Made by a program: the position numbers and the translations under genes. 13,515 nucleotides of DNA from Candidatus Brocadiia bacterium (GTDB lineage Bacteria > Planctomycetota > Brocadiia > SM23-32), in contig JBKHIT010000091.1 of the NCBI GenBank assembly GCA_046538485.1, forward strand, positions 1 to 13,515, read 5' to 3'. A model generated the notes under the pieces. That model was not told the DNA's origin and ran no database searches. It worked only from the letters and a program-made list of their open reading frames with translations. Shown piece by piece: positions 8,607-10,000 of this stretch (position 1 is the first letter of the stretch; each line of letters starts with the position of its first letter).

Positions 8607-8831
8607 GGATGTTTTCCGAGAAAAAAGTTGCCAGACGCGCTGGATAGGGTATAAAGAGTAATGTCGAAGGGATGGAAAAGAAGAAAGTTGAAAGAAGCAT
8701 AGAGAGACGAAACTTCTTTCAGCAGCTTCTGAGAGATCAGAAAACTTTTTCACCCCTTCGACTTTTCTATGTACCGGGCGGGCAGGCTCGCACCCGGCCA
8801 TCAAAATCGTAATCCTAGTCGTGATCCTAAT

Positions 8832-9596
8832 GTGCGCCGTGATAAGGCGCAGAGTTTCAGCAGGAATTAATACCTGCCCGGTAACTGTCGCTCCAGCCGG
8901 TAGCAATCGGAGCCTTTGTGGAGGTAACAAAGCGAAGGAAGCACTTCGATGTAAAGGGTCACTTATAGGTGATCCCGCGAGTTTGCAGGCCCAATTCGTT
9001 TGAACGCCGAGCAGGCCTCGAAACCGATTTTGCGGAAGCCGACCCATCATTAGGTTGGGGAAGGCTGCCAGCACTGGCGCAGCGAGCGACCAGCAAGCCA
9101 GTGGTTCCGCCGGGGTAGTGGCGAGGGCATGCAGACCCAGGAACTCTGTAGCAACACGGGATATCCAGCCCGGCAAAGGTGCTGATGAAGCGCTGCAACT
9201 GGCAGCCTGTGAGGGACGTGCCAGGTCAGGTTGGAAGTCGGAGAGGCCCATATTACCGCGGAAGCCGGGAAAACCGGTGGAGGGGAGGGGCCTTGGTCTG
9301 AAAGAGACATAGGAAGCGGCGTGTAAGGCAAGGAGACTGGCCATTTGGCCTATAAGCTCCTGAAGATGTCGAGAGGCTGCCGAGTATGTCAGGTATGCGT
9401 GGCAAAGGTGCGAGCCGATAGCCGAGCATTACCTTTGATAACAGAGAAAGCCGGATGCGGGAAATCCGCACGTCCGATTTGACGAGAGGAATGTGGAAAC
9501 GAAGTGCATGGTCAGGCTATTTAGGCACTCGCAGACGAAAGGGCGAGAACCAGATAAGCCGGGCCTAAACGCCACCGCGCCACATTTCTACTCTAC
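8832..9596 (+). mobile_element. ORF-less group II intron (765 nt; IIB-like, resembling bacterial class E/F)
   Basis: 5' end GTGCG. Domain V AAAGCCGGATGCGGGAAATCCGCACGTCCGATTT (9447-9480; AGC triad, GAAA loop, AC bulge). Long domain VI GAGAGGAATGTGG...CCACATTTCTACTCT with bulged A9590, ending ...CTCTAC. EBS1 ATTAGG (9049-9054, hairpin loop) is complementary to the 5' exon end CCTAAT (8826-8831). No RT ORF. Confidence 0.93.
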
Positions 9597-10000
9597 CGTA
9601 ATCGTCCGTTAAATCCTTTTAGCCGTCGCCGTACATCCATAAATCGGTGTAATCCGTGCAATCTGTGGACAGAAGCTTTTTGTCGTTGGCCGTTGCCCCC
9701 TGCCGCTTACCGTGGCGCCTCGTCGCGCACTTTGTCGGCCGTACGTCGTTCGCTCTTACCGTCCCGCCGTTAAAACTCGTAATCATAGTCGTCATCGGTC
9801 GTTCGCTGTACGCCGTCGCTGACCTCTGATCACCGATAACAGATCACCGATCACCCGCCGTTTATCGTCGCTGACTTCTGACCTCTGTAGCTCCGTCCCC
9901 CGCCGTCCCCCGCGCCTCTGCGTCTCTGCGGGATCCAGCCGTTTGGCCGTTGTGGTTTATCTCACAACTCACAACTCAAAACTCTCATTTGCCGTCCCCC
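9597..10000 (+). repeat. Mosaic repeat array E
   Basis: AATCCGTGCAATCTGTGGAC (9651-9670) is identical to 3147-3166. Also a copy of the array D block and TCTGACC, CTCTGCGT and CACAACT (9961-9985) modules, with GCCGTY punctuation. Confidence 0.9.

Follow-up and report, generated by a model that had tools for sequence, protein, structure and literature searches.

Group II introns that have lost their open reading frame (ORF) are rare in bacteria and nearly always reside together with related introns (PMC4424553). Among the described cases are the TeI3 introns of Thermosynechococcus elongatus, which are characterized by one deletion, N- and C-terminal remnants of the gene, diverged exon-binding sites (EBS) and mobilization in trans (Mohr, Ghanem and Lambowitz 2010; PMC2882425). 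Helper-dependent ORF-less introns have been proposed as a step toward a common splicing machinery (PMC2882425). The stretch analyzed here, called the window, is the whole of contig C79 (13.5 kb; 13,515 nucleotides) from a Candidatus Brocadiia bacterium whose genome bin comprises 5.19 Mb in 143 contigs and is 88% complete. It includes, at nucleotides 8832 to 9596, a genuine group II intron that has lost its reverse transcriptase (RT) gene and is located in a short intergenic repeat. We consider it likely that this element is a non-autonomous, endonuclease (En)-less, IIB-like intron that was mobilized in trans and arrived at this site by retrohoming. The features of the intron and of the exons that flank it are the following.

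8797-8831, + strand: 5' exon, first half of the interrupted hexamer module (CATCAAAA-TCGTAATCCTAGTCGTGATCCTAAT), from the alignment of the joined flanks
8817-8821, + strand: candidate intron-binding site 2 (IBS2), AGTCG, exon positions -15 to -11, forming 5 bp with the candidate EBS2, one of them G·U
8826-8831, + strand: IBS1, CCTAAT, complementary to EBS1 at 6/6 positions, the pairing stopping exactly at -1
8832-9596, + strand: ORF-less group II intron, 765 nt, GTGCG...CTCTAC, from Rfam matches and homologue junctions
8858-8999, + strand: part of domain I matching group-II-D1D4-4 (Rfam, 60.4 bits)
9025-9029, + strand: candidate EBS2, CGATT, in columns that vary among homologues (CGAT, GGGT, GTCT, GGGC)
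9043-9059, + strand: EBS1 hairpin, stem CCCA/UGGG with a 9-nt loop, EBS1 ATTAGG at 9049-9054
9313-9445, + strand: domain IV (D4) with the ORF remnant, limits approximate, from comparison with the G024 intron and a copy on contig C65
9448-9481, + strand: domain V (D5), 5-nt loop GAAAU, aligning to RF00029 and to 12 homologues
9484-9593, + strand: domain VI (D6), long and structured, about 110 nt, from the minimum free energy (MFE) fold and the RNAalifold consensus
9597-9616, + strand: 3' exon, second half of the module (CGTAATCGTCCGTTAAATCC), from the alignment of the joined flanks

An ORF-less intron had been placed at 8832-9596 by a sequence-only reading of the window, and this claim was borne out in its coordinates as well as in its substance. 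The Rfam covariance search that had been suggested as a check returned RF02003 (group-II-D1D4-4) over model positions 1-138 of 138, with 60.4 bits (gathering score 49) and an E value of 1.9e-11, and RF00029, which covers D5 and D6, at 9446-9596 with an E value of 2.1e-5 in a 1.2-kb search. The MFE of the intron had a z-score of -4.64 relative to 20 shuffles. Both ends are defined by homologues: similarity to copies within the same genome stops exactly at 8832 (eight 5' junctions) and at 9596 (five 3' junctions), and the D5-D6 regions of 13/13 aligned sequences from this and other genomes finish at one common column. The termini fit the group II rule of GUGYG at the 5' end and AY at the 3' end, being GUGCG and ...CU[A]CUCUAC, respectively. 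Removal of the intron restores an uninterrupted module, as had been proposed: joining the flanks (8600-8831 and 9597-9900) gives a sequence whose junction region matches the module at 5369-5417 without gaps at 41/49 positions, and a second module, at 8395-8447, with 83% identity over 53 nt. A 3' end at 9526, where a weaker RF00029 alignment (32.3 bits) stops, was also considered; it would leave a short canonical D6 followed by a 70-nt 3' extension, an architecture as in introns of the B.c.I4 type. This alternative was rejected because the copies are alike up to 9596, the covarying basal stem of D6 closes at 9584-9593, and relatives with a short canonical D6 (L038) share that stem.

Of 16 public sequencing runs, three (X1, X2 and X3) and the RNA run X14 were compared with the window over nucleotides 8300-10100, their contigs being unitigs. 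Run X1 contains 0.88 of the sampled words and may represent the sample of origin. A joint from 8831 to 9597, which would correspond to a spliced product or an empty site, was absent from the joints listed (15 of 26) for the contigs of X1, X2, X3 and X14; since unitig contigs cannot show absence, these data have no bearing on whether splicing or empty alleles occur. In X14 the intron is covered in parts only, and a related unspliced copy is present at another site. One contig of X3, a run labeled 'DNA?', has a joint of 9596 to 8870 in which the 3' end of the intron is followed by 38 letters resembling a diverged 5' end and then by the intron; this tail-to-head arrangement could represent tandem introns, an intron inserted at the end of another, or a circle-derived copy.

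The loss of the ORF can be traced to an internal deletion in D4. A full-length relative from another genus (G024, contig C70; about 2.0 kb) includes in this domain a gene for a 437-amino acid intron-encoded protein (IEP) with RVT_1 and GIIM domains and no En domain. The D4 of the window intron retains a Shine-Dalgarno (SD)-like AAGGAG (9330-9335), the position of the former start codon (9344-9346), which now reads TTT, and about 14 N-terminal IEP codons, ending at a deletion junction near 9380 that is followed by a short remnant of the 3' end of the gene. The list of ORFs of the window has no protein-coding frame inside the intron on its own strand, and the sole long frame over the intron, a minus-strand ORF of 309 amino acids at 8415-9344, was discarded as spurious, having no Pfam family and crossing both repeats and intron. 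The description of the element as non-autonomous and ORF-less was therefore correct.

The D4 junction and the N-terminal codon remnants are common to the window copy, two copies on contig C65 of the same genome (5518-5802 and 8280-8493) and a 761-nt copy, likewise ORF-less, from another genus of this family (G005, contig C3, 62-822), the latter being 74% identical over intron positions 2-765. The first C65 copy is 90% identical over positions 481-765 and still reads ATG-S-L-T-T-P-E. These copies have four differing 3' flanks, and the 5' flanks differ between the window and G005, both C65 copies being truncated at the 5' side. The same junction within different flanks indicates that a single deletion derivative has reached several sites and more than one genus. 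A relative from a different family of the phylum (G293, contig C372), truncated in D6, is also ORF-less with another junction, which indicates that ORF loss recurs in this lineage. A query with domains I to III (D1-D3) over 32 genomes of the order found no further homologues. As a separate observation, the two C65 copies are 3' fragments (positions 481-765 and 551-763) that lie inverted and facing outward within 5518-8495, flanking a 2.5-kb segment that encodes a 474-amino acid Transposase_29 protein (E 5e-152). An insertion sequence (IS) may have entered an intron copy or the space between two copies; alternatively, the copies may have undergone a rearrangement with each other.

D5 and D6 are recognizable in the 3' portion of the intron. 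The consensus generated with RNAalifold from 13 D5-D6 sequences includes 35 pairs, 16 of them maintained through two-sided changes, and leaves five unpaired columns for the D5 loop. The helices of D6 covary, and in the MFE fold the branch-point A (9590) bulges from the basal stem of this domain (GAGAGGAAUGUGG / CCACAUUUCU[A]CUC) at a distance of 7 nt from the 3' end, where 7-8 nt is expected of a group II intron. The impression that domains V and VI were intact thus held for D6, with its basal stem, bulged A and covariation, but not entirely for D5, which has the private mismatch at A9477 described below. No part of the intron is better conserved than the distal portion of D6 (about 9508-9580, GGUCAGGCUAUUUAGGCACUCGCAGACGAAAGGGCGAG...CCUAAAC). 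Copies that are only 76-78% identical in domain I (D1) reach 91% there, and the segment can still be recognized in other families of the phylum. The far better conservation of distal D6 than of D1 suggests that it may have a functional role beyond presenting the branch site.

The ribozyme is IIB-like and most resembles the IIE and IIF introns in its small size, the 5-nt loop of D5 and the long, structured D6, an assignment by resemblance rather than by IEP phylogeny. No IIA-type delta pairing was found beside EBS1, the base 5' of EBS1 being unable to pair with the first base of the 3' exon in three introns, and the literature searched had no mapping from Rfam D1D4-4 to a named intron class.

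Recognition of the 5' exon was assessed by comparing each intron with its own flank. The EBS1 hairpin is preserved in eight sequences, with 31/32 stem cells paired and a closing pair that is AU in three, GC in three, UA in one and unpaired in one. The EBS1/IBS1 pairs are ATTAGG/CCTAAT in the window, TGAAAT/ATTTCA in the copies on C113 and C117 of this genome, TCCAAT/ATTGGA in G024, TGAGTT/AACTCA in G198, GCTAAA/TTTGGC in G393 and GTAAAG/CTTTGC in G091, while G293 has 4 bp only. At least six contiguous pairs ending at -1 are therefore found in 6/7 distinct intron/exon combinations. As the homologous loop covaries with the 5' exon, the assignment of EBS1 is strongly supported; both the 6/6 EBS1-IBS1 match read from the window alone and the position of EBS1 in a hairpin loop at 9049-9054 were confirmed in this way.

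The situation of EBS2 is different. No clear EBS2 had been recognized before; a weak candidate, CGATT with AGTCG, does exist, yet it is not separable from chance. In a fixed register the mean number of pairs is 2.4 for cognate and 0.9 for non-cognate combinations, which is suggestive of a pairing. In a free search of the EBS2-region columns against exon positions -20 to -7, the longest cognate pairing was no better than the non-cognate ones, and for this reason the putative EBS2-IBS2 interaction is left as a candidate. For IIE and IIF introns, Nagy et al. found no role of the apparent EBS2-IBS2 pairing in self-splicing in vitro (PMC3753933).

The sequence-only reading had also proposed that the intron uses the hexamer modules as safe-harbour targets, so that the flanks of homologous introns would consistently be such modules. 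Distinct 5' junctions of homologues number 21 across this genome and the related ones. In 12 of them the intron comes after TTARCCCG-N4-TTTCA or a near match to it, and seven are at other, unrelated sites, the hexamer-like ones being the window copy and, arguably, an 85-nt fragment (L050) in G005 that follows CGTAATCCTGCCCCATAAT. Within this genome a module is found at 1/8 visible 5' junctions. For the family as a whole, then, the proposal failed, homologous introns being found at unrelated sites. The presence of the intron also says nothing about the function of the modules, which it had been thought to support. Interspersed non-coding repeats, about 140-330 nt long and in places arranged as inverted pairs, have TTARCCCG-N4-TTTCA as their first 17 nt. 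The TTARCCCG pattern has 60 matches in the genome, against a rough chance expectation of about 20, and six of them are occupied by intron 5' ends. The parent lineage does land in a repeat, but in another repeat than the hexamer modules. Sites of both kinds are listed here.

C84:89878, - strand: example of the interspersed repeat, pattern match
C126:5665, - strand: example of the interspersed repeat, pattern match
C134:96091, + strand: example of the interspersed repeat, pattern match
C113:35210, C117:438, C73:50, C98:11232 and C65:48: 5' exons with the TTARCCCG motif
5367-5417 of the window, + strand: uninterrupted paralogous module, the analogue of an empty site, with CGCAGT in place of CCTAAT
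8398-8450 of the window, + strand: second uninterrupted module, with CCCAGT in place of CCTAAT
9766-9806 of the window, + strand: third uninterrupted module, shorter, with nothing comparable to CCTAAT

A narrower form of the proposal is that only an ORF-less sub-lineage homes specifically to modules of the hexamer type (TCGTAATC/TCGTGATC), its EBS1 variants tracking the hexamers and the modules acting as multi-copy safe harbours. The pairing in the window is good (six of six for EBS1 and 5 bp for the candidate EBS2), and the parent lineage likewise homes to an interspersed repeat. Contigs of X2 and X3, which are hypersaline metagenomes, include a near-identical 5' part of the intron after the same 13 or 8 exon letters, beyond which they are unlike the window. 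In the same runs a related intron has the changes T9047C, G9053C and T9055C, which turn EBS1 into ATTACG, the complement of CGTAAT; this latter hexamer is the commonest (core) hexamer of the modules and also the first 6 nt of the 3' exon in the window. The G005 fragment has a 5' end of the window type, an unoccupied ATCCTAAT/CGTAAT string is present on contig C159 of G005, and module-like strings with at most one mismatch are above background, with 13 in this genome, 0-5 in each of 31 relatives and 0 for the reversed control. On the other hand, the count of hexamer-like junctions is one, arguably two, out of 21, the exact modules number four and are confined to contig C79, and the three uninterrupted ones lack CCTAAT. 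The 5' exons that correspond to the ATTACG variant lie outside the visible sequence, and by our own count about two of the 18 single-base changes open to EBS1 would fit one of the hexamers in register, so that this variant is only weakly informative. Furthermore, scans with the EBS1-loop pattern GACCCNNNATTASGNNGGGGAA yielded 37 loci in genome contigs and 54 in metagenome contigs, and 0/91 were homologous to the intron by blastn. We find specialization on the modules doubtful for these reasons. A wider conjecture, which we regard as quite unlikely, is that the family lives on the patchwork of intergenic repeats of its host and that an ORF-less daughter re-tuned its EBS1 (ATTAGG, and ATTACG in other metagenomes) to successive hexamers of the TCGTAATC-type modules, which are found throughout this bacterial family; if true, it would represent a helper-dependent ribozyme that diversifies along the units of a simple repeat.

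The joined exons include a 91-codon stop-to-stop frame on the + strand, and the intron could be imagined to interrupt a small gene, splicing restoring a 79-codon frame (ATG near 8770, stop near 9770) that reads R-N-P-S-R-D-P-N through the repeats. This frame is arginine-rich and of low complexity, neither of its halves has a Pfam match, the surrounding mosaic of 6-, 7- and 9-nt repeats cannot hold a frame, and the module at 5367-5417 has a stop immediately upstream in the same frame. That a gene is interrupted here is thus extremely improbable, and the preferred reading remains that of an intron located in an intergenic repeat.

A source of IEP was sought in the assembly with PF00078, a search for a cognate RT having been suggested earlier. 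There were six RT matches, and the two that belong to the lineage of the intron, on contigs C113 and C97, are both truncated. The 335-amino acid frame of C113 is 59.6% identical to the G024 IEP over residues 124-437; the same deletion in this copy and in the fragment at the end of C97 has eliminated residues 1-123 together with the start codon and the SD region. The C113 element itself (35210-36823) is a 1614-nt intron in which the deletion has brought IEP codon 124 next to the 5' edge of D4, with RT0-RT2 gone, and the same junction recurs at the end of C97 (165372-165872), where the sequence is 97.8% identical over 369 nt. Its presence at a second site indicates that this crippled form was also copied.

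Several facts weigh against a trans-mobilized intron that arrived by retrohoming. An intact cognate IEP was not found by the PF00078 search of the assembly, and the intact RTs, on C99, C44 and C120, are just 35-40% identical and belong to introns that lack a D1D4-4 match. The RF00029 score of 37.1 bits is just under the gathering score of 40. The assembly has a single complete copy with EBS1 ATTAGG, and hence no sign of repeated homing by this variant. In G005 the ORF-less copy has a C in place of the initial G and no longer forms the EBS1 hairpin, features that indicate that at least some members of the ORF-less lineage are dead. Finally, the AGC triad of D5 has its C opposite A9477, and the resulting C·A mismatch is private to the window copy: the paired columns 6-32 of 13 sequences are CG in 11, CA in the window and CC in one. 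Mutational work on D5 of the yeast intron ai5-gamma reportedly indicates that pairing in the triad helix matters for catalysis.

Some of these facts are also compatible with a dead relic, unable to splice or move and decaying in non-essential intergenic DNA. The intron lies in a 1.75-kb gene-free stretch, mostly of short-period repeats, between a truncated AbiEii-like gene (end at 8299) and a DUF3427 fragment (start at 10051), so that nothing selects for its splicing. The ORF remnant has neither its former start codon nor its frame, and decay is seen elsewhere in the family, not only in G005 but also in the truncated D6 of G293 and in fragments on C55 and C104. Against complete decay, D1-D3 of the window intron has four private departures at otherwise invariant columns, the lowest number among 10 aligned sequences (tied with G293), the basal stem of D6, the branch A and both termini are canonical, and EBS1 still matches the exon at all six positions. 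Four intron 5' ends are at contig edges and the bin is 88% complete, and an intact helper may for this reason be unassembled. We regard a dead relic as a real possibility, if somewhat short of an even one. The earlier description of the intron as probably splicing-competent is weakened by the D5 mismatch, while D1-D3, the termini, the branch site and EBS1 are in its favor; present-day splicing and mobility, judged from these features, are possible. As the assembly now stands, the copy has probably become stranded, since an intact cognate IEP was not assembled and D5 has a private mismatch. The statement that mobility would need an RT/maturase in trans agrees with the absence of an ORF.

The origin of the trans-mobilized intron can be envisaged as follows. 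An ORF-containing ancestor underwent one internal deletion in D4 that removed nearly the whole RT/maturase gene but kept the Shine-Dalgarno region and the first 14 or so codons. In studied introns the region of the first IEP codons is the main RNA binding site of the maturase. The ORF-less form would then have been spliced and mobilized in trans by the IEP of a related full-length intron. After changes in EBS1, and possibly in EBS2, it would have reverse spliced into DNA at AGTCG-TGAT-CCTAAT/C (the slash marking the point of insertion), a sequence that happens to be part of one copy of a low-copy intergenic repeat of the hexamer type. The sequences show the identity and boundaries of the intron, the loss of its ORF at a shared junction, covarying EBS1-IBS1 pairing and the arrangement of D5 and D6; from them we infer trans-mobilization, arrival by retrohoming and any activity at present.

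The surroundings of the intron are rich in repeats. A scan of 8250-10150 for sigma-70 promoters and terminators gave nothing exceeding the shuffle expectation. The intergenic regions of the window at 3138-3723, 5371-5799, 8338-8594 and 9642-9984 are mosaics of 6-, 7- and 9-nt tandem repeats with units such as CTGACCT, GATCACC, CTCACAA, TTCAAAG, TGGTTTC and AATCCGTGC... Pieces of these tandem repeats reappear at many contig ends, and the relatives L164 and L177 have similar arrays (GTTCGTT, CTGGTT). The mosaic recalls the heptamer short tandemly repeated repetitive (STRR) sequences of cyanobacteria, although the phylum differs. In addition, 8352-8513 recurs imperfectly, in direct orientation, as 9720-9869; the two copies, of about 160 nt, are 82.7% identical, have one hexamer module each and flank a segment composed of a unique AT-rich region (8600-8800) and the intron. 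The entire 1.2-kb block between the copies of this direct repeat may be an insertion or a local duplication. The window also includes two toxin-antitoxin pairs of the AbiEi/AbiEii type (3796-5242 and 7426-8299), the second AbiEii being shortened to 78 amino acids (Pfam profile positions 3-37 of 238) immediately ahead of the repeat field. With genes for a DUF4143 ATPase, the DUF3427 fragment and a type I HsdM methylase nearby, the contig looks like a defence island.

The closest described counterparts of this intron are found in several systems. As in TeI3 (PMC2882425), there are an ORF-containing ancestor, a single D4 deletion with break-points common to all copies, remnants of the ORF, diverged EBS, and copies that lie at differing sites, most of them intergenic, and pair well with their exons through EBS and IBS. 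Both also need an IEP in trans, that of TeI3 being provided by TeI4 (PMC2882425). They differ in that TeI3 is a CL/IIB intron with an En domain in a host of another phylum (PMC2882425), whereas the lineage described here is IIE/IIF-like and En-less. Copies are far fewer in this genome, with one complete and two 3' fragments, and an intact helper IEP was not found in it; on the other hand, the shared-junction lineage of the window, known here from sequence alone, spans two genera.

The IIE and IIF introns, represented by Pe.th.I2, Ge.ur.I1-1 and Cl.be.I2 (Nagy et al. 2013; PMC3753933), have a IIB-like structure and a 5-nt D5 loop like the window intron, and a long, highly structured D6 is a feature of IIF (PMC3753933). 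Their ribozymes measure 450-700 nt without the ORF (PMC3753933), the 765 nt of the window intron being within or just above this range, and EBS2 is hard to demonstrate in them as well. An En-less IEP is a further common feature, found here in the full-length relatives of the window intron. The window copy differs from them in being without an ORF.

The En-less RmInt1 and its relatives (Sinorhizobium meliloti, class D) home into copies of insertion sequences (PMC1802570, PMC4615759). The parent lineage of the window intron also uses a repeat, the TTARCCCG-N4-TTTCA start of an interspersed repeat of about 140 nt. RmInt1 has its own IEP and a transposase-bearing IS as its target, whereas the target of the window family is a short non-coding repeat.

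A parallel with the IIC-attC introns, as drawn in the sequence-only reading, extends to the repeated presence of intron copies at a non-coding site that is itself repeated, whether a recombination site or another repeat (PMC7923331). In other respects it does not fit. According to the same source, IIC introns have a ribozyme of about 400 nt with an EBS1 of 3-4 bp and no EBS2, and recognize an upstream stem-loop (PMC7923331). The window intron combines a 6-bp EBS1 with an IIB-like D1 and 765 nt, its best Rfam match is D1D4-4, it lacks the short EBS1 with upstream hairpin, and no single structured site is shared by its relatives.

Each well-documented shared-junction lineage adds evidence that ORF-less introns can persist as helper-dependent 'miniature' retroelements. 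The present one adds an En-less, IIE/IIF-like lineage in an uncultured bacterium of hypersaline mats, a deletion junction that is found across two genera, and a clean case of natural EBS1 covariation, and leaves the knowledge of how such elements work unchanged. Taken next to the systems described above, this ORF-less, repeat-borne intron represents a type of hitch-hiking mobile element that is rare but has been described before.

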